NCBI RefSeq assembly: GCF_018977255.1
Contig: NW_024704742.1
Span: forward strand, 103,852,001 to 103,916,000
Length of the DNA: 64,000 nt
Source of the DNA: Callorhinchus milii
Taxonomy: Eukaryota
Direction of reading: 5' to 3'
Shown: positions 13,801 through 57,050 of the stretch, piece by piece
Layout of the letters: each line of letters starts with the position of its first letter
Position numbering within the stretch: position 1 is the stretch's first letter
Notes under the pieces: generated by a model
What the model saw: only the letters and a program-made list of their open reading frames with translations
Told to the model about the DNA's origin: nothing
The model's database searches: none
Program-made: the position numbers and the translations under genes

Positions 13801-15506
13801 CAATTTGCTCTGGTCCTCATCCACACCAACAGCAAAATGCATTTACATAGCACCTTTGTAATTAATAACAATAATCCTTGCACTTGATATAATGCGTTAT
13901 CACTTAGTTAAGATGTCTCAAAGCATTTCCCAGGAGAAACTGCAAAGTTTATATTTATAGGCAAAAAAATATATATGAAGGGTGCCCTATGAGATGTCTC
14001 TTGCCAAGGGTGAAGACCCCAAGGTTATCTAATTGCTGCTCGAAGCTTATTCCTCATTGCTTGTGTCTGTACTTCCTCTGGAGTCTGGACAGCCCCCTTA
14101 AGTCATGGTAGCCAGAACAGTACACAATATTCCAGACGTTCTTTGAGACACCAGAGCTCTGTACATCCCAGGCACATGTTGATCTGAACTCCACTAATTG
14201 GGTAGTATAACAGCATTCTGTTGGCTTCATTTGCTGCTGCCTCAGTCTTACATTTTTGATCACACATTCAGTCGCCTTTTCCTTTCCCTCCTCACTGAGG
14301 TCATGCTCGCAGTCAGCTTTGTGAAGCACTTTGAAAAATCATCTCAACATGAAAGGTGTTATATAAACAAAATCTGTTGTTGGATCATTGAATCTCCCCA
14401 TTTACAGTGAATTGTAGGGTTACAAGTTTCAGATATTTTATTATTCATTTTTAGCTAAGGGCTCTCTTTAGTAGCATTGGCAAATCATCTCAATAAATTT
14501 AGATGTTTGGGATTGTGATGTTCCCAACAAATGGTGCACAGTTGTATCCACAAAAAGCAGGTTTATGTAGTAACTGGTCTGCCTTCAATTCATATGGAAT
14601 GTTAGCAATAAAAATATACTACATGAACTGTGCATATTTTGGTGAAGAAATCAAAAATAGAAATGAGCACAAACTTCCTAAACATTACACACTATGAATC
14701 CAAAAATTTGGCATTTGGTGAATTCTACATTTACAGGAAAATTATATTTATGAGAACTTCCTGTGCATTGGGTTTTGTTTCATGTGGAAATACATTAAGC
14801 AGGAATAAACATTCATCTCCAGAGGTAATATTTTACATTTCTTAATTTTGTATTCACTACCAAGCATGCTTACCAACTCAATTTTTTTCTATTTAAAGTT
14901 AATTATGGAAACTGAAAAATATTATGTACAGACTATATATTATGTAATGCAAAGCAGAGAAAACCTGATGTATGAAATAGGTAAACAGTCAACTGAAAGG
15001 AAAATAGCAAAATTAAAACCTATACATTTACGAAACATTTGCAGTGTCTTTGTAAACTTGAAGTCAACATATAAGGTAGGGAGAATATTCAAATTATTTT
15101 TTCACAGGATTAAATCAAAATTAGAGCAGTCATAGAAGCATAGATGATATCCATATATTGTACAGCACAGAAACTAGCCATTGGCCCAGCTGGTGTATGT
15201 CACCTATACTATATTAGAATATCCAACATAAAAAAAACACTCCAGTTAAAATTCTGGTGGAATATTTTGATCTTGCTCTTCCAAAAGTGATTGCAAACAG
15301 TTTACATTATAGGTTGAAACATGGAATTTATTTAATATTCTTTGAGACTCAAATTCATTCAAATACTCAACCTTGCTTAAAACAAGGGAATGGAAATGGA
15401 AAAGAAACACAGATGTTGTAAATTGAGGTTCCACAGCAACAATCAGATGTGGGAGATCCACTGTAAAATTATACTGCAGTTTTTTTTACAGCAGTTTTCC
15501 TCAGAC

Positions 15507-15507: not shown

Positions 15508-16508
15508 TTTTTTTATTTGGCACACTGGCATCCGACTACAAAATGACAAATCTTGTTACCACGTAATAATCTGTCTCCCTTTCGCCATTCAGTATTATCA
15601 CTCACAACTAAATATTTATTGTAGAGTTTAAACACAGGCATGCGCTGGTTGAATGAATGGCTAGTTTCTGTGTTGTAATCAAGAAATAACAATACTATGG
15701 TTCAGCTAATACGTGTTGTGTTATTGACTCGTGTCCACAAGGAATTTGAAACTGCCTAAACTCGTTTACTACCATCTGGGAGAATACTTTCATCCAATTA
15801 GTGGAGGCTCAATTTGAACCCAGATGTAAGATAAGAGGTCAATGTTCACTGCATCACCCATTCCCTCAAAAATAGGGTCGAATTTTGAAACAAAATACTG
15901 TATGTCAATCACCAAATTTCATTCCTCCATATACAAATAAGTTTACAACCATTTGCAGAGACATTGAAAATCCTAGATATTTAAATTGTAAAGCAACGAT
16001 GTTTAAAGCAACAACAGAGCATAAATATCCACCACAATAAGATGATTTGGAAACCCTTCATTAATGTACAACTGAATATATGTCTGTACAAGTAATTAGC
16101 ATTGTGCTCCTCTTTCCTCCTGTGCTTTTACTTTTCCTCTTGATTATCCATTCTACTGGTCTTGTAAAGTTGATTAACTACTGCCAAACAATCTATAATT
16201 TACTCACTTAATTATCACCCATCTCTACGGTTTACTCACTCAATTATAAGCCTCCTTGATTATTGGTATGATTTTCTTCAGGACTGTTAATCACTGCTTA
16301 CAAGTACACAGAAAAGAATAACAGAAGCAAAGCAGAAATAAATATAAAATCTAGGTAGAAAAGAAATGTGAGAACATATAATTCAGTTTCAAAGGTATCC
16401 ATTTTCCCTTTAAATCTCACTGCCTTTACCAACATCCTAGCAACACCTCTAACAAGAGGTACAGTTGTGTGCAATTGGCAATCACTACACTTTACAGTGT
16501 ATTAATCC

Positions 16509-39880: not shown

Positions 39881-40125
39881 CATAAATGTAAAATAAAACC
39901 TTGAAAATTCTGTTCTTTTCATTGAAATTGATCTGAAAATACCCAGCTATCAAGACAGTAATCTTATTTCACCAAGACAGTTACCATTAGCAAATTACAG
40001 TATAAGCTCCAGGTACGCATTCAATAAAACAACAAGGTTTTGGTGAAAAAAAAGCATGCACAAGTTTTTTTGTTGGGAATAAGGGGAGGAAGAGAGGATA
40101 AAATACATAACAGAACTGAACTTAC

Positions 40126-40337
40126 TGTGTTAGCTAATTCCAGGTAACTACCCCCCATTGGAGTACTTAAGTTAGAAGCTCGAGCTAAAAGTTTTTGCAG
40201 AGCAGTTTGCTGATCCAGGTTGCCTCCACCATACTCAAATAGTTTCTGAAGAGTAGGGTGGGATTGCAGGTCTGGACTTTGAAGATCCCGAGCTCCAGAA
40301 TCATATTCCCAGCTCTCCCTGGCTCCTGTCAATGCAC
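40126..40337 (-). CDS. MCC: MCC coding exon 3
   Basis: Acceptor CATTTCAG|GT completes Gly. Encodes ALTGARESWEYDSGARDLQSPDLQSHPTLQKLFEYGG...GGSYLELANT. Donor ACA|GTAAGT, phase 0, 212 nt. Confidence 0.95.
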
Positions 40338-40770
40338 CTGAAATGAATTCGAAAATTTAGAGGTCAATTGTGGTACTGGATATTGCACTACTTATTTATA
40401 CTTGCATTTGATACAGCACATTTCATGTGGGGAAGAGATCTCAAAACACTTTACAGCATTTACTGCGAATTATCCCACATTGGTACTTGGAATTAAGTTT
40501 CATTTAGATGAAGCTAGAATAACCATTCTTCTGCATTTCAAAATTCTGTCTTTGTGATCTGGATATGAGACATCCACTCTACCACAATAACATGCAGCTG
40601 TCCCTTTCCTTCTTGTAGCAATCAGTTAGTTTCACTGAAGTGTCTGGTGCTTCCTTTTCGGGGAATGGGGGGGGATACATTTATTTTGGAATCATTGCTA
40701 TTGCCCAACAGTTTCCTTGATTAAATTCTTAGGCGCTGATTCCTCATCCTATTTTGTGTTCACTATTCAC

Positions 40771-40920
40771 CTTGAAAAGAAGATTTATCCAGGTTGCCTT
40801 CACTTGGAGATGCACTATTTTGCCGTCCTTTCTCATTCTCTTCCACAATTACAATGGAGGATTCATTGTTGGAGTCTCCAGTTGATGTTAGATCTTGCAA
40901 TACAGAAGGTCCAGCAGCAT
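40771..40920 (-). CDS. Candidate in-frame cassette exon of MCC between exons 2 and 3
   Basis: Acceptor TTGTTATCCTTGTTTTAACAG|A, donor CAAG|GTGAAT, exactly 150 nt, phase 1-1 matching intron 2. Open in the MCC frame: DAAGPSVLQDLTSTGDSNNESSIVIVEENEKGRQNSASPSEGNLDKSSFQ. Confidence 0.55.
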
Positions 40921-43860
40921 CTGTTAAAACAAGGATAACAATCAGAAAATTTAACTGTGATAAGACAATTGACATTGAACTAACCACATACTGTTTGATT
41001 GACTAAATCTGCATAGTTTGAATAAGCATCAACATGTGCTTCTGCAATATCATAAATTATACACAAAGAATACACATGAGGTATATTGCTTTTAACCTTC
41101 AAACCACTTTATTTCAAATAACACTATATACAAATTGTGCTTTAATGATTGTACCTTAAACATCAAAAACTTTTTAATAATTGAAATAAAAACCTAAACA
41201 ACCCATCAATATAAAGATGGCAACACAATATAAAGCACAAAGACTGCTCTCTCCTTACTCTGTGGATAAACTAAAGTAATATGCAATGTGGTTTTCAGGG
41301 TGATATACATTTAAAATGGTAAGAAACAAAGGCACCCAAACAGGCGATACATAAATCTGAAGAAACAAATTACATCATAGCTGCCGTTGAAACCTGAGTA
41401 GATTTTTACAGTAACTCTCACCTGCCCTGCAACTCTTACCCCACCCCCACCCATGGGAACAACCTTATAAATTGGGCTAATTTCACAGATGGGTTAATAA
41501 TCCTGTGTTTTTCAAGACTACAATAGAGGTGCAATGCATCAGTTTTCCTAACGACAGGGATTGTCTCCGGAGTGCTGCTAACAGAAGCCTCGTTCTTCAC
41601 CTACAAACTTTTAATCATACACAAGAAATAATAATAATAATTGCATTTGATATAGTGCCTTCTCGCGTCATTAAGGTGCTTCAAAGTGCTTCACGGAATA
41701 CATTGTAAAGTGTATTGACTGGTGTTTTTTGTGGCCGAAATGTGGCAGCCAATTGCACACAGCAGTGCCCCACAAACAGTCGTGGACTGAGTGATCCTTT
41801 TTTGAAGGGATTATTAGACCGGAAAGCAATCCACCAATTGACTAACAACCAAGTTCCTACTTACTACTAGGAAAACAGAAGTGTGTGAAGTAAGGAAACT
41901 TGCCCAAGGTTTCACCCTACCTGGGAATCAAGCCTGGGTCCTCTCTCTTGCAAGGCAAGTACACTAACCACTATGTGACCAAGTAAACTACCCTATTCCA
42001 AATTGGAGGGGCCCTGGAAAGGGGGTGAACATAAATCATGCTTTATGTTTCTATAACCCACACCAATAAATTTAATAATTTCAATTTATTCACAGCTGAA
42101 TATTTTTGCAATGTAGTAGTAGGATAATATTACCCAAATGTATTGACTGAATGGCCTTTTTTCCTTCTAGATTTCATAAGTGTTTGCATCAGCTGACTGG
42201 AATATGCACAATACGTTTGCTTACAACAACAAAATTACATTTGTATCGGGCCTTTCACGTCAGGAAGACGTCCCAAAGCACTGGACAATCAGTGTTTCGG
42301 ACTGATGTGTCATTCCCTATTCAGGAAAATAGCCTAAGGTTTCGCCCTGCCGGGGAATCGAACCTTATATAAGAGACATTCCATAATTTGTTTACAATGT
42401 CATGGAGACTTGCTATTGCATCTTCCAACACCACCTAGTTCTTTCAACATTTATATAGTAATTTGTTCAAAATCCTACAGCTGGCATTGCTCCAAATCAA
42501 ATGAAGACATCCTGGATGAATCTTTTCTGATTTTTAAACCAAAAATCAGCCTTAACAATTGAATAATCACATAGCACTTGCTAATCCTTATAAAATCACC
42601 TTATAAATTCAGAATAAAATGAACCCCCAGGATTTTTTGAAAAGACCAGACAATTCATGAACAGATTTATATTGAGCCTTGCTCATTGGGAGGATGTCCC
42701 AAGGTGCTGGGACAGCCAGAAACTGTATCAAGGTCAAGAAAATTAGCATATAATGAAAAGGTATGAAACATGGAAAGAAAACATATATCAGACATCGTAT
42801 TTACAATGATGGTGGGTTTACGACTTTTCTACTTTGTTTGTCTCAATGCTGAGCATCAAAAAAAAGAACCATAGTGCTTCTTGTAGTTTAGGTGATAAGA
42901 CATTACTGTGCTACAATCCTGAGGTGGGGTGGCGGGGGGGGGGGGGGGGTAGAGAAAGAGCAAGTGAGTAGTGTCTCCTTGGGGCAAGAGGTAGTAGGCA
43001 GTGTCTCCTTAAAGCTGAGCAACATGTTTGGAATTGATTCAATTCTCTGTAGCAGGTTAGGAAGTCTGCTTCCCAAGTAAGATGGGACTGCTGCTCTTCA
43101 GGGCCTGCTGATGGGTCCAGTCTGTCTGGATCGTTGGTAGAAATGTAGGAACAGACTGCCAAATCCCTGGTTAGGATAGTCCTCGTTAGACAAGCAATGG
43201 GAGATTTACACAACGCTCTCAACGGCAAGCTAAGGTTTTAGCTAAACTCCAGCAGTTACTCACACGCAACGTACACCTAAGTCTCCAAGCCTTGGCTCTT
43301 ACCAACCAGCTCCTAAAATTCCCTGAAATTTTCCAAAACACTGACTGTCCAGCACCTTGGGATGTCCTCCTGAACGTGAAAGGCGCTATACAAATGTAAT
43401 TTTGTTGTTGTTGTTGAAATTAGGCAAGCAGGATGGGTCCAGAATGACATCCCATTCTAGGCACAAGGAACATTGATTAGGCAGCGCATATGTGGAACTC
43501 TGTCTGGTTTGGATACTTCTTATGTATTGTGATAGGTTTAGCCAGTGTCTGACACCCAGCTGACCAGAGAAAATTAATGCAGAGTAATAAATCTGCTGAC
43601 ATAATCACAATCTTAAATTGAAGATTTGTAGTCAATGACCAAAACAAAGTCAGTAAATACTGTCACATCCACAAACAAATTTAAGAACCTAAAGCACAAT
43701 GTAGTGGATGCTATGTCACACGAATAAAGCAACCAATCAATGATATGTGACTTGAGAATATATAAGACTAATGTAAACTTCCTTTCATATTGAATCATCA
43801 AATTTTATGAAGTTTTTACTAAATTAAAAATTCACTTTCTTCATTACATCATTTACATAC

Positions 43861-44108
43861 CAAGACTGTTGTCACTGCTGGTTGGCCACGAAGCTATTCT
43901 ATCCCGTAATTTTCTTTTCTTGCAAGAGTCATCTGACTTTACTGAAAGTTCCCCTTCCTCTTTTCTTATTTCAGACACCAGCTGCATTCGACATCGTGTA
44001 AAATCCTCAAAGGAGATTTTCCCATTCTCATCTGCTCCCAATTGATGCATGATTTCAGCTACAGATTCCTCCATGTTTAATTGGCGACACACCATGAGCA
44101 AATCATTC
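43861..44108 (-). CDS. MCC: MCC coding exon 2 (end of EF-hand 1, EF-hand 2)
   Basis: Acceptor TTTCTTTTTCTTCAG|G completes the Arg codon from exon 1. Encodes NDLLMVCRQLNMEESVAEIMHQLGADENGKISFEDFTRCRMQLVSEIRKEE...RDRIASWPTSSDNSL(G). Donor G|GTATGT, phase 1, 248 nt. Confidence 0.95.
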
Positions 44109-47100
44109 CTGAAGAAAAAGAAATGTCATCACAAAAGTAAGCATCAAATCACCTCTTTCATATTTTAATTTCGTACATTTTGCAAATTTTAAATATTACC
44201 TTACAACCATGTGGTAACCAAGAATGAGTGAATACAGCTACCAAGAAAGACTGGATAGGTTAGCGTTTTTTTTCTTATAAGACGACTGAGAAAAAAAACT
44301 TGATAAAGGTGTTTAAAATTATGAAAGGATTCGAGAAGTGAGTCTAAAACAAGGAGCATAAATATGAAATAACTACTAGCAGATCTAAAAGAAAGTTTAA
44401 GAGGAACTTGTTTACACAGTGAGTCGTGAGAATTTGGAATTCCCTGTCCAGAAAGCGATGGTTGAAGCAGAAATCGTTAAAGCGATTAAGACGAAAAGCA
44501 ATGTATACTTGCAAGAAGGAAACGGATAATAGGGAGAGGGAATTAGGAAGGGTGAAGACTGATCGGCACAGACTAATAGGACCAAATGTAATTCTATGCA
44601 ACATTTACTGTAATCTATCAATCATTTTTGCCTAAAACTGCTCATATTTCATTATACGTTTTGAAAATCAACTTTGATGACCTGTGTTTAAATTCACAAA
44701 CTACAACAATGAATCAGAATAAAGCCCAATTCATAGAAAGGATATACTGTATTATTTCATGGGTTTGTTCGGCTTTGGAACTGGCCCCAAGCCAACATCC
44801 ACTCCCAACAAAACTAGTTTTAGTGCCAAATTCAACAATTGAACTCAATCCATTCAAGCACTCAAATGATTCATTGCTATCAGAAGCAAATGCAGTTTTT
44901 CAGATTCTGTTCAACATTAAATATTAAAAAGATGAAATTACGCTATGTACAATTCTGTTTTGTTTGGTTAACAATTTTCTCAAATCGTAAAGTGGACATT
45001 ATTTTCTTTGACAAAGGTTTCTCATTCTGCGTGAACATACAGTATTTAAATGATACCCAAAGGTCATATTCTCCTATATGCACAAGAGGAATTTGGTCAT
45101 TGTGTGGTATCTGTATTGTTGGAGCAGGGAAAGAAAATCTTCAGTTGCTGGCCTTATGCACGGAGCCATCATCTTTGTAGAAATGCAAGAATTGTGAATG
45201 TTTCAACCACAAACCGACCCAATCACTCACTCAACCTCACTACATAGCTGTTTGTGGGACATTGCTGTGGGGATAAGGAATAAATTTCGATCAGTAATTA
45301 GATAACCTGAGTCTCTTCAGCCTTGAAAAGATACAGCGCTCTGAGACACCCCCTGGTGTGGAGGGCGCTATATAAGTGCAAGTTGCTGTTGTTGTCTCAT
45401 ATATATTTTTTGCCCACAAATATATAGTCAATCCATTTTACAGTTTCTCCTGGGAAGTGTTTTGAAGTGTCTCAATGAAGTGATAATGCACTATATCAAA
45501 TGCAAGGATTATTATTAATTACAATAGTGGTTTAGGTCCATAAAATTATGGACATAATTTAATTTTCATAAATGGATCTTCTACACCAAGTATAAATGGT
45601 TTTAAATAAATCTTTTCTAAACATGCTGCATATTTTGCTAAATGCGCACAGCAGTGCGGCCAGCCTCCAGCGAGTGCCCGCACCAGTCACAGGGTTAGGG
45701 CGGGAGGCCTCCACGATACAGGACTGTTATCTGGTCAATCTTACCCTATAAGAACTTACAAGAACTTCTAGAATGCGACAAGCTACGTGTTAAATGGAGT
45801 AATAGGTAACACAACATCTCTTATTAATGTTTTGCATGGGTAGCAGCTGGGAGGTTGACAGGATGGTGACTTAAATGATAATGACAAGTTGTTCCAGGGG
45901 CAAGTTATCAGTTTACTGTACTTGCATGTTCAACAAACATCTATTTGCATTTGACAAGTGTTCAAATGACTTGATACAATGTTAAAATTAAAATTAAAAA
46001 TTTGCTTTTTTAAAAAAGCTGAAATTATTGAAAAACAAACATCCTCATCAATCTACAGTTTTTGGAGCAAAGCAAGATTTTTTCTCATGCAAGACATAAG
46101 TATAATACAGGACCAATATGCTTGATAAATCTTCAAAACAAGTCTTGCTTTGCTCTTCCCATCAACCCAGCAGTTGCAGAATAACTAGTTATTATAAATA
46201 ACAGATAACTTATCTTAAAATATATTACCTTGAAATAATATCTGTATAGGACGTAATTTTTCAAATTACCCCATGTCCTACACAGATATTTTACCTTAAA
46301 ATAGTCAACTTCTCAATTAAAAGAACAATAAAAGCATCAGCATAAAGCTGCTGTAACTATAATCTATAAAATTCATTTATTGGAGGGTCTGAAGACAGAG
46401 CAAAGCATTGCACCCAAGCAGCATAGCTGTCCTTTTTAAAAGTCAACCATCAACATCTTAAAATTTAATAAATTCCAGTGTTAAACTGAATATCAACTAC
46501 TAAAATTTGCACATATGCATAGCTACCAATAATGCAATAGTCCAACCCCAATAAGATTACATAAAGGTAGATCAGGTCTCACAACAGTTGACAAACACGC
46601 AACAATGTCCCACAAACAGCCAGGAGGTGAAAAGCAATCTATTTGAAAATAAAACCTAGAATGGGCCACATATAAAACCTAGATAAGTGTCCAGTAAACT
46701 CTTGATAGCTCATCACTCCAAGGGAAAAAGGCTGTGACAAGTTTTCCAGAGTGACAAGTTAGGCATATGTATAAATGTATATAAGTTGCTGGGATATTGC
46801 CAGCACGATGACTTAAGTGGTCATGATAAATTAAGCCAGGGTTGAGTTATCAGTTTACTGTACTGTGTCCAATTCTGGTCACCTCCCTCCAAAATGGAAA
46901 ATGTACAGAGTAAGCCTACTAGAATGATACCAGGACTGGCAAGTTACTGCTATCACGATAGACAGGGTAGGTTAGTCCTTTTTCACTAGAGATGAGCCCA
47001 TCGGCAACAGTGTTACTGAGTGTTGATGAGCTTCGAAAGGGGTATTCTTCATTCATAATAATGCTTCAGCTGCAGAACTTTCATCTGGTGGACGAAATAA

Positions 47101-56429: not shown

Positions 56430-57050
56430 CGCTGGCAGACAACGGGAGTCCTACCTGCTGATATAGCCGTCTCCGTCCCCATCGCAGGTCTGGAAGAGGC
56501 GCCTCATCCGCTCCTCCTCGCCGGTGCTCGAAGTGTCGCTGCTGCCGCTGCTGGCGCTCGCCGCAGCCGCCGCCGTCGCCATCTTCCTCCCGGCTAACGG
56601 CACCCGAAGCACGTCACAGCTCGAGAGAGAGAGAGCGGAGGTAGGGGAGGGGGGGGGAAGAGCTGCGCGAGGAGCGACCGTTGCAAACAAACGGTTAAGT
56701 GTGCGCGGACCCCCCCCAACCCGACTTCCGAAACTTCCTCTCGTGCTCACACAAAACCCGGCGCGGTCTCCGCTCGCCCCTGCGCGCGCCACCCGCACCA
56801 ATCACAGCAGCCGATTCGGAGGAGCCCAGGGCGCACCGCGCATGCGCGTTCATTCCCCCCCCCCCCCCACACGCACACCCCGCGCGCCACCCGCCGCGCA
56901 TGCGCGTGCGCACTGGTACCACTCTACGGGTTTCGCTGGGATTTCTTCTGCCGCCAATGTTGCCAGAGGTTGGGCGGGTTCACGCCCAATTGGGCGGCCT
57001 GTGCTTTGTGTTGTTACTGGACGTGAAGAGCTGCTTTGGGCGAGTTGCCT
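56430..57050 (-). promoter_or_regulatory. CpG island / TATA-less promoter of the MCC long isoform
   Basis: Abrupt rise in GC and CpG. Two NRF1-type palindromes GCGCATGCGC (56838-56847, 56896-56905), CCAAT (56798-56802), tandem ETS cores ACTTCCG/ACTTCCT (56724-56739), and a YY1-like AAGATGGCG over the start codon. Confidence 0.85.
56455..56582 (-). CDS. MCC: MCC long isoform, coding exon 1 (Ala/Ser-rich N-terminus and first part of EF-hand 1)
   Basis: ATG at 56582 in context GGAAGATGG. Encodes MATAAAAASASSGSSDTSSTGEEERMRRLFQTCDGDGDGYIS(R), matching my recollection of the vertebrate MCC long-isoform N-terminus. Donor AG|GTAGGA after 56455, phase 2 (128 nt). Confidence 0.95.

Follow-up and report, generated by a model that had tools for sequence, protein, structure and literature searches.

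The long isoform of elephant-shark (Callorhinchus milii) MCC carries a 150-nt internal coding exon that is lineage-restricted among the annotated proteins sampled and lies within a diverged inverted pair in intron 2. The exon occupies positions 40771..40920 on the minus strand of the 64,000-nt stretch of genomic DNA that was analyzed (the window) and encodes residues 126-175 of XP_007895580.2 (P0001). RNA-derived contigs confirm that the exon is real, and the inverted pair, which contains the exon, its splice sites and downstream intron, is the new finding of this analysis. We think it probable, though well short of certain, that the exon arose when one arm of an inverted duplicate, both old and local, was exonized. 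It would thereby supply a low-constraint spacer of 50 residues, predicted to be disordered, which the predominant long isoform now includes.

The exon and its splice sites

A sequence-only reading of the window had proposed an exon at this position with an AG|GTGAAT donor, a length divisible by three, phase 1-1 and no stops, and all of these features proved exact. The exon is located between MCC exon 2 (43861..44108, minus strand), which encodes the second EF-hand and the start of a conserved linker, and exon 3 (40126..40337, minus strand), which encodes a conserved linker motif. The coding part of exon 1 of the long isoform lies at 56455..56582 on the same strand, its start being placed from the residue count. 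Exon 2 gave a 100% match to C. milii MCC. Joining exon 2, the 150-nt exon and exon 3 keeps the MCC frame and adds 50 residues.

The 3' splice site (40921..40955, minus strand) consists of a genomic AG at 40922-40921 preceded by a T-rich tract. The polypyrimidine acceptor described earlier is present, but of moderate strength, with 13/20 pyrimidines and an AG-free zone of 32 nt. What we take to be a branch-point-like motif is found ~22 nt upstream of the 3' splice site. The 5' splice site GTGAAT (40765..40770, minus strand) has its GT at 40770-40769 in the donor context AAG|GTGAAT. When the intronic sequence was scanned for look-alike segments with thresholds set at the exon's own level, only the exon qualified among the 56 kb of MCC intronic sequence that the window contains (one segment in intron 2, none in introns 1 and 3). 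The number of chance look-alikes expected in an intron the size of intron 2 was ~0.02, or 0.19-0.24 with looser rules.

Two further features of the gene were observed. Exon 3 contains an in-frame second AG at window position 40325 (minus strand), 12 nt into the exon, and the equivalent site is used in gecko and bird models (P0022, P0086) that are four residues shorter. The first coding exon of the short MCC isoform is located at 28480-28400 (minus strand), within intron 3.

Splicing in RNA-derived contigs

Contigs of four of the 14 listed runs (X1, X2 and X3 from one study, X5 from a second) were aligned to positions 40000-44200; these runs were judged RNA-like from their spliced joints. In three of the four (X1, X2, X3) a single unbroken contig runs through exon 3, the 150-nt exon and exon 2; its joints coincide with the predicted GT-AG sites and its depth is 24-44, while the unique intron bins beside the exon had a depth of 0. 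The two junctions by which the earlier reading proposed to check the exon were thus both found in runs X1-X3, the upstream one as 43861>40920 and the downstream one as 40771>40337 after a +3 shift. Run X5 gave only the upstream junction and had no cover over the 3' part of the exon or over exon 3. Together with the open frame, these junctions establish a spliced coding exon of MCC.

No joint leading directly from exon 2 to exon 3 was among the joints listed for the four runs, which are all but nine of the joints, in contigs that drop rare variants. Breaks in the contigs fall at the outer borders of exons 2 and 3 and nowhere at the 150-nt exon, which suggests that inclusion is the major form. 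Inclusion thus appears near-constitutive, and minor skipping is possible. The term cassette, which the earlier reading had used, is unsupported since no skipped junction is listed: the contigs and all three long RefSeq models show inclusion, and a skip occurs in one of seven scorable C. milii models.

One polymorphic site was seen, at position 40862 (minus strand), where contigs of runs X1 and X3, and not those of X2, have another letter. It is the sole other letter listed on the examined stretch, lies inside the 150-nt exon and is nonsynonymous (Glu/Asp); the older RefSeq and UniProt models have Asp at this codon. An A-to-G difference within the exon was not listed for any of the RNA-like contigs.

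Annotation and literature

A 49-residue peptide from the exon matched one of 19 candidates, XP_007895580.2 (isoform X2), with 100% identity and coverage. The exon is present in all three long C. milii RefSeq models (XP_007895579/80/81, isoforms X1-X3), in two model versions, and in the UniProt model A0A4W3JVV4, and these agree with it letter for letter except at the Glu/Asp site. Of the seven scorable C. milii models six have the exon, and it is skipped in the remaining one, UniProt model P0002; the start of five short models lies further downstream. P0002 has an odd 8-residue gap in a conserved region, suggesting that it is a homology-built model. Because RefSeq and UniProt already carry the exon it is not new to annotation, and the earlier view of it as the strongest novelty lead in the window does not hold. 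Some of the runs may be among the RNA data from which these models were built, so that the models lend no independent support to splicing. They differ from the present result in being automatic and in bearing no mark of lineage restriction or origin.

A published description of this MCC exon was not found in a literature search that reaches few subscription journals. The only paper found to cite an exon-bearing accession is a study of MCC evolution that made use of such a model and did not remark on the exon (PMC10418881); the words 'exon' and 'insertion' do not occur in its accessible text. For mouse MCC, the accessible parts of three papers describe two isoforms, a long one that includes exons 1-3 and a short one transcribed from a second promoter, with nothing further on this region (PMC4963810, PMC6476813, PMC7544984).

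Phylogenetic distribution

The protein set comprised 200 stored sequences, 12 from C. milii and 188 from other species, 30 of the latter being unscorable (short isoforms, fragments and one non-MCC protein). The insert was present in none of the 158 scorable non-Callorhinchus MCC proteins, all of which are annotated proteins. Exons 2 and 3 are joined directly in 152 of them, including seven mammalian proteins; two are four residues shorter, flatworm MCC is five residues shorter, and three have another insert. Sharks and rays are represented by 16 named species, bony fish by coelacanth, bichirs, sturgeons, paddlefish, gar and bowfin, and tetrapods by frog, reptiles, birds and mammals; the set has no teleost, lamprey, human or other chimaera protein. 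The absence elsewhere applies at the annotation level, for 120 of the 415 exon 2 matches listed and with 15 of 28 members listed for one shark cluster.

A search for MCC proteins of at least 1046 residues returned 11 matches, of which XP_007895580.2 alone had the insert and one (P0170) was not MCC. No MCC protein of another chimaera was among the protein search matches. The exon peptide had no match among 1.84 billion sequences (50% representatives), a result that shows neither novelty nor absence. The same reading applies to the comparisons of the peptide with Pfam, which gave no relative, and of residues 100-200 with the ESM Atlas, which gave no usable match.

The earlier description of the exon as lineage-restricted agrees with its absence from all 158 scorable proteins of other species. 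Its alternative, loss in mammals, does not, since sharks, rays, coelacanth, basal ray-finned fish, tetrapods and the flatworm also have no insert. Chimaeras and elasmobranchs separated ~420 million years ago, according to the part of the source consulted (PMC6238376). The simpler account, judged from the sequence comparison, is that the exon was gained on the elephant-shark line after its split from sharks and rays, because one gain is a shorter account than two or more losses. That the exon belonged to the ancestral jawed vertebrate and was kept only in chimaeras appears extremely improbable; its presence in a slowly evolving lineage is the only support for this idea, which requires at least two independent losses and is at odds with the 158 proteins lacking the insert and with the short spacing of flatworm MCC at the site. 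Studies often take the elephant shark to represent the ancestral jawed vertebrate. For MCC the direction of change is corrected here, as the elephant-shark protein shows the derived state.

Other lineage-only inserts were noticed in MCC. At this exon 2/3 junction, old spotted-gar RefSeq models (P0181, P0183, P0184) have an unrelated insert of 16 residues whose first two are Gly-Lys, as would be expected of read-through to a later donor; the newer gar models listed do not have it. Turtle X1-type models (P0032, P0044 and others) have a 17-residue insert after exon 3, another lineage-only MCC exon. In C. milii itself isoforms X3 and X1 (P0121, P0122) have another insert, 36 residues long and located in the region of the first coiled coil, which is encoded outside the window and seen in C. 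milii models only and in some isoforms. These inserts of 16-36 residues in gar, turtles and C. milii resemble the present one in being in-frame and at exon borders, but they are unrelated in sequence and occur in some isoforms only.

An inverted pair in intron 2

The sequence-only reading had found no resemblance of the exon to local repeats. This is correct for the abundant repeat fragments of intron 2, none of which overlaps the exon, but a diverged inverted copy is present in the same intron, 1.45 kb upstream. Arm A of the pair (40631..40932, minus strand) takes in the end of the acceptor, the exon in full, its donor and the 140 nt of intron that follow. Arm B (42388..42661, plus strand) is antisense in the pre-mRNA, lacks both splice sites and has no open frame over its length. 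The arms are identical in 185 of 259 aligned columns (~71%), with 58 gap positions, in view of which part of the alignment may be over-fitted.

A 400-nt box around the exon scored 80 at arm B, as compared to a mean of 28.1 (sd 5.4, n=505) for tiles of the window. Among other unique boxes used as controls, 0/70 reached this score within 3.6 kb in four of five schemes and 1/70 in the fifth. After removal of the seeding block, each arm half was compared with 1000 GC-matched controls; 0/1000 were as good in global mode, a comparison favoured by taking the arm limits from the alignment itself, and 0-4/1000 in local mode. Common descent of arms A and B is very likely on this sequence evidence. Extension of the arms inward or outward was rejected, with 187-736/1000 controls as good. 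A 27-nt inverted block was likewise rejected as a signal by itself (11/147 controls as good) and its duplex is not exceptional; only the full ~300-nt alignment is unusual. The window contains no third copy of the arms.

The counterpart of the acceptor in arm B is without the G of the AG, and four bases are missing at that of the donor; these differences are indels in all seven scoring schemes. Arm B has stops in all three frames and shows no exon-level depth in the RNA-like contigs. Mismatches between the arms number 42/130 in the exon part and 32/120 in the intron part. With respect to arm B the exon part has thus diverged to the same extent as the intron part, which gives no sign of purifying selection since the copying. 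The differences comprise 26 transitions and 48 transversions (p=0.41), with no transition excess of the kind that common descent would leave, a point against the pair.

Elsewhere in the window, a possible second and weaker old inverted pair was seen at 15077-15222 and 15612-15758 (97 identities, 39 mismatches, 21 gap positions), which was also the best control box in one scheme. A search of Rfam gave only a sub-threshold tRNA-like match at 41917-41985, in a repeat head.

The encoded segment

The insert contains 10 Ser, 5 Asn and 9 Asp/Glu among its 50 residues and has a net charge of −6. It follows the EF-hand pair, which Pfam places at residues 23-80, and precedes the first long helix, which starts at residue 237. 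Since it falls inside a stretch with pLDDT<50 (residues 95-241) the insert is probably disordered, a prediction that low pLDDT fits without proving it. The acidic, Ser/Asn-rich and probably disordered segment after the EF-hands that the earlier reading had foreseen is thus what the model of the protein displays.

The flanks of the insert are strongly conserved, with 97% conservation over residues 110-125 and 92% over residues 176-197 in 24 vertebrates. Both blocks are near-invariant within the predicted disordered linker and are partly kept in the flatworm. Short linear motifs in disordered regions are often highly conserved. The blocks resemble what we take to be a basophilic kinase/14-3-3 site and a DSG-type degron; a literature search on MCC and 14-3-3 found nothing direct. 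The exon keeps both blocks whole and sets them 50 residues apart, and their conservation makes a wholly neutral insert less obvious. Within the insert itself there is presumably one SUMO-interaction-like motif (residues 148-151, four aliphatic residues with an acidic flank after them) and, by the same kind of assumed pattern, three CK2-type sites; such patterns are common by chance, with 42 CK2-type sites in the whole protein. The insert is most likely a tolerated spacer, as judged from the predicted structure and sequence. Low constraint is suggested by the equal divergence of the exon and intron parts, the nonsynonymous polymorphism in the exon and the pLDDT below 50.

Origin of the exon

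According to the account that we favour, ~300 nt of MCC intron 2 would have been doubled in inverted orientation 1.45 kb apart, either by local inverted duplication or because an old element was present twice. Small indels and point changes in one of the two sequences, that at 40631-40932, would then have created an AG acceptor and, 150 nt away, a GT donor, the frame between them being open, and the spliceosome would have used the new exon. The exon may have been tolerated because the frame was kept and the insertion landed in a disordered linker, so that it could become the major form of the long isoform, where it would act as an acidic, low-constraint spacer that separates the EF-hand module from the first coiled coil. 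The inverted sister copy would be a rare built-in record of possible pre-exon DNA, with both splice sites lying on small indels. Exon birth in this case would have followed an ordinary route to a new exon, and no functional consequence for MCC is known.

The same inverted similarity would be expected if the exon came first and arm B were a later inverted copy of the exon and downstream intron that has since decayed, the exon itself having come from unique intronic DNA or something else. The stops in all three frames of arm B and the position of the inner end of arm A, 12 nt from the acceptor, are compatible with this order of events. It would however require that arm B, antisense and unselected, lost both splice sites by indels, and the lower divergence from arm B that purifying selection predicts for the exon part, relative to the intron part, is not seen; we regard this order as improbable. 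A transposon origin departs from the favoured reading solely in the source of the pair, the arms being either the terminal inverted repeats of a DNA transposon of ~1.6-2 kb or two old family copies, with the exon exonized from one of them. Arms of ~300 nt with a sharp end on both sides would suit such an element, and long terminal repeats of this length fit Tc1-type elements. None of the 60 open stretches of 24 or more residues over 40600-42700 matched a transposase family (one sub-cut-off match to DUF2789 was obtained), which is a weak test for an element so old. The pair also shows no clear terminal motif, no third copy in the window and no repeat-level depth over either arm at 95% likeness, and a transposon source is in our view unlikely, though it deserves some weight.

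A tandem duplication of the 5' part of exon 3, since decayed, is in our view a quite unlikely source of the exon. The exon and exon 3 share an in-frame block of 16/17 nt and a 9-nt block upstream of the acceptor, and under three stringent schemes only 0-2/1011 tiles scored as high. Under three gapped schemes this number rose to 21-32/1011, and to 313/1011 under one other, with exon 2 scoring alike. In acceptor-anchored tests 37-977/2500 controls were as good; protein comparisons (387-856/2000 shuffles, and 153/2000 with a profile) were not significant, and arm B is unlike exon 3 (46-671/1000). The likeness to exon 3 was thus weak and did not persist from test to test. Internal duplication from elsewhere in the MCC protein was rejected as well, with 59-151/500 shuffles as good.

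Comparison with known exons

In mammals, most new exons come from unique intronic sequence and the older ones tend to be constitutive and coding, as far as the consulted part of the study by Merkin et al. goes (10.1101/009282). The MCC exon is similar to the exons in that part of their work in being internal, absent in the relatives sampled, probably derived from a non-repetitive intronic source, coding and apparently constitutive (10.1101/009282). It differs in that it occurs in a holocephalan fish and in that the inverted sister copy, instead of a relative's aligned orthologous intron, represents the non-exonic state.

With the Alu-exon of NARF, as described in the accessible text (PMC1852406), the MCC exon shares the location of a lineage-specific exon in one arm of an inverted intronic pair. 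The inverted intronic Alu pairs covered in the available parts of two other reports (PMC2533698; 10.1101/2025.03.07.642063) likewise have the exon in one arm, in the same intron. In contrast to NARF and these Alu pairs, as far as the sources describe them, the AG of the MCC acceptor is encoded in the genome, no edited site is listed, identity between the arms is only ~71% and the pair is assigned to no repeat family. An editing-dependent exon of the NARF type was rejected since the AG, the GT and the open frame are all genomic and the contigs list no A-to-G difference in the exon.

Arm pairing and exon inclusion

The arms could also bear on exon use. If the exon were a regulated cassette, it would be skipped in some tissues or stages, possibly because arm pairing in the pre-mRNA hides the exon and its donor. 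One UniProt model (P0002) skips the exon, and the predicted duplex of the arms, at −139 kcal/mol, is more stable than that of tiles (−93 kcal/mol, sd 13), none of 77 tiles being as low. Inverted intronic repeats can shift splicing in the cases described in the consulted part of one study (PMC2533698). Against this, no skip joint is among those listed, the contigs are unbroken in three runs, no A-to-G difference is listed in the exon, 60-nt pieces of the arms pair no better than other segments, and the gap in P0002 points to a model built by homology. Regulated skipping thus seems rather improbable, and because the exon is included and unedited in the data examined we see the arm pair as a scar of origin and not as a switch.

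It is very unlikely, in our judgement, that the exon and the antisense arm form a working unit in which pairing tunes inclusion by tissue and the insert rewires MCC by parting the conserved motif blocks and adding the SUMO-interaction-like motif and CK2-type sites. If this were the case, the new exon and its regulator would both stem from a single inverted duplication, here in a non-mammal and with no Alu involved, and the unspliced ancestor would survive next to the exon.

A common short repeat has two opposite copies in intron 2, at 42223-42301 and 43332-43411, upstream of the exon. These copies are 83-95% complementary, and their pairing could be stronger than that of the old arms.
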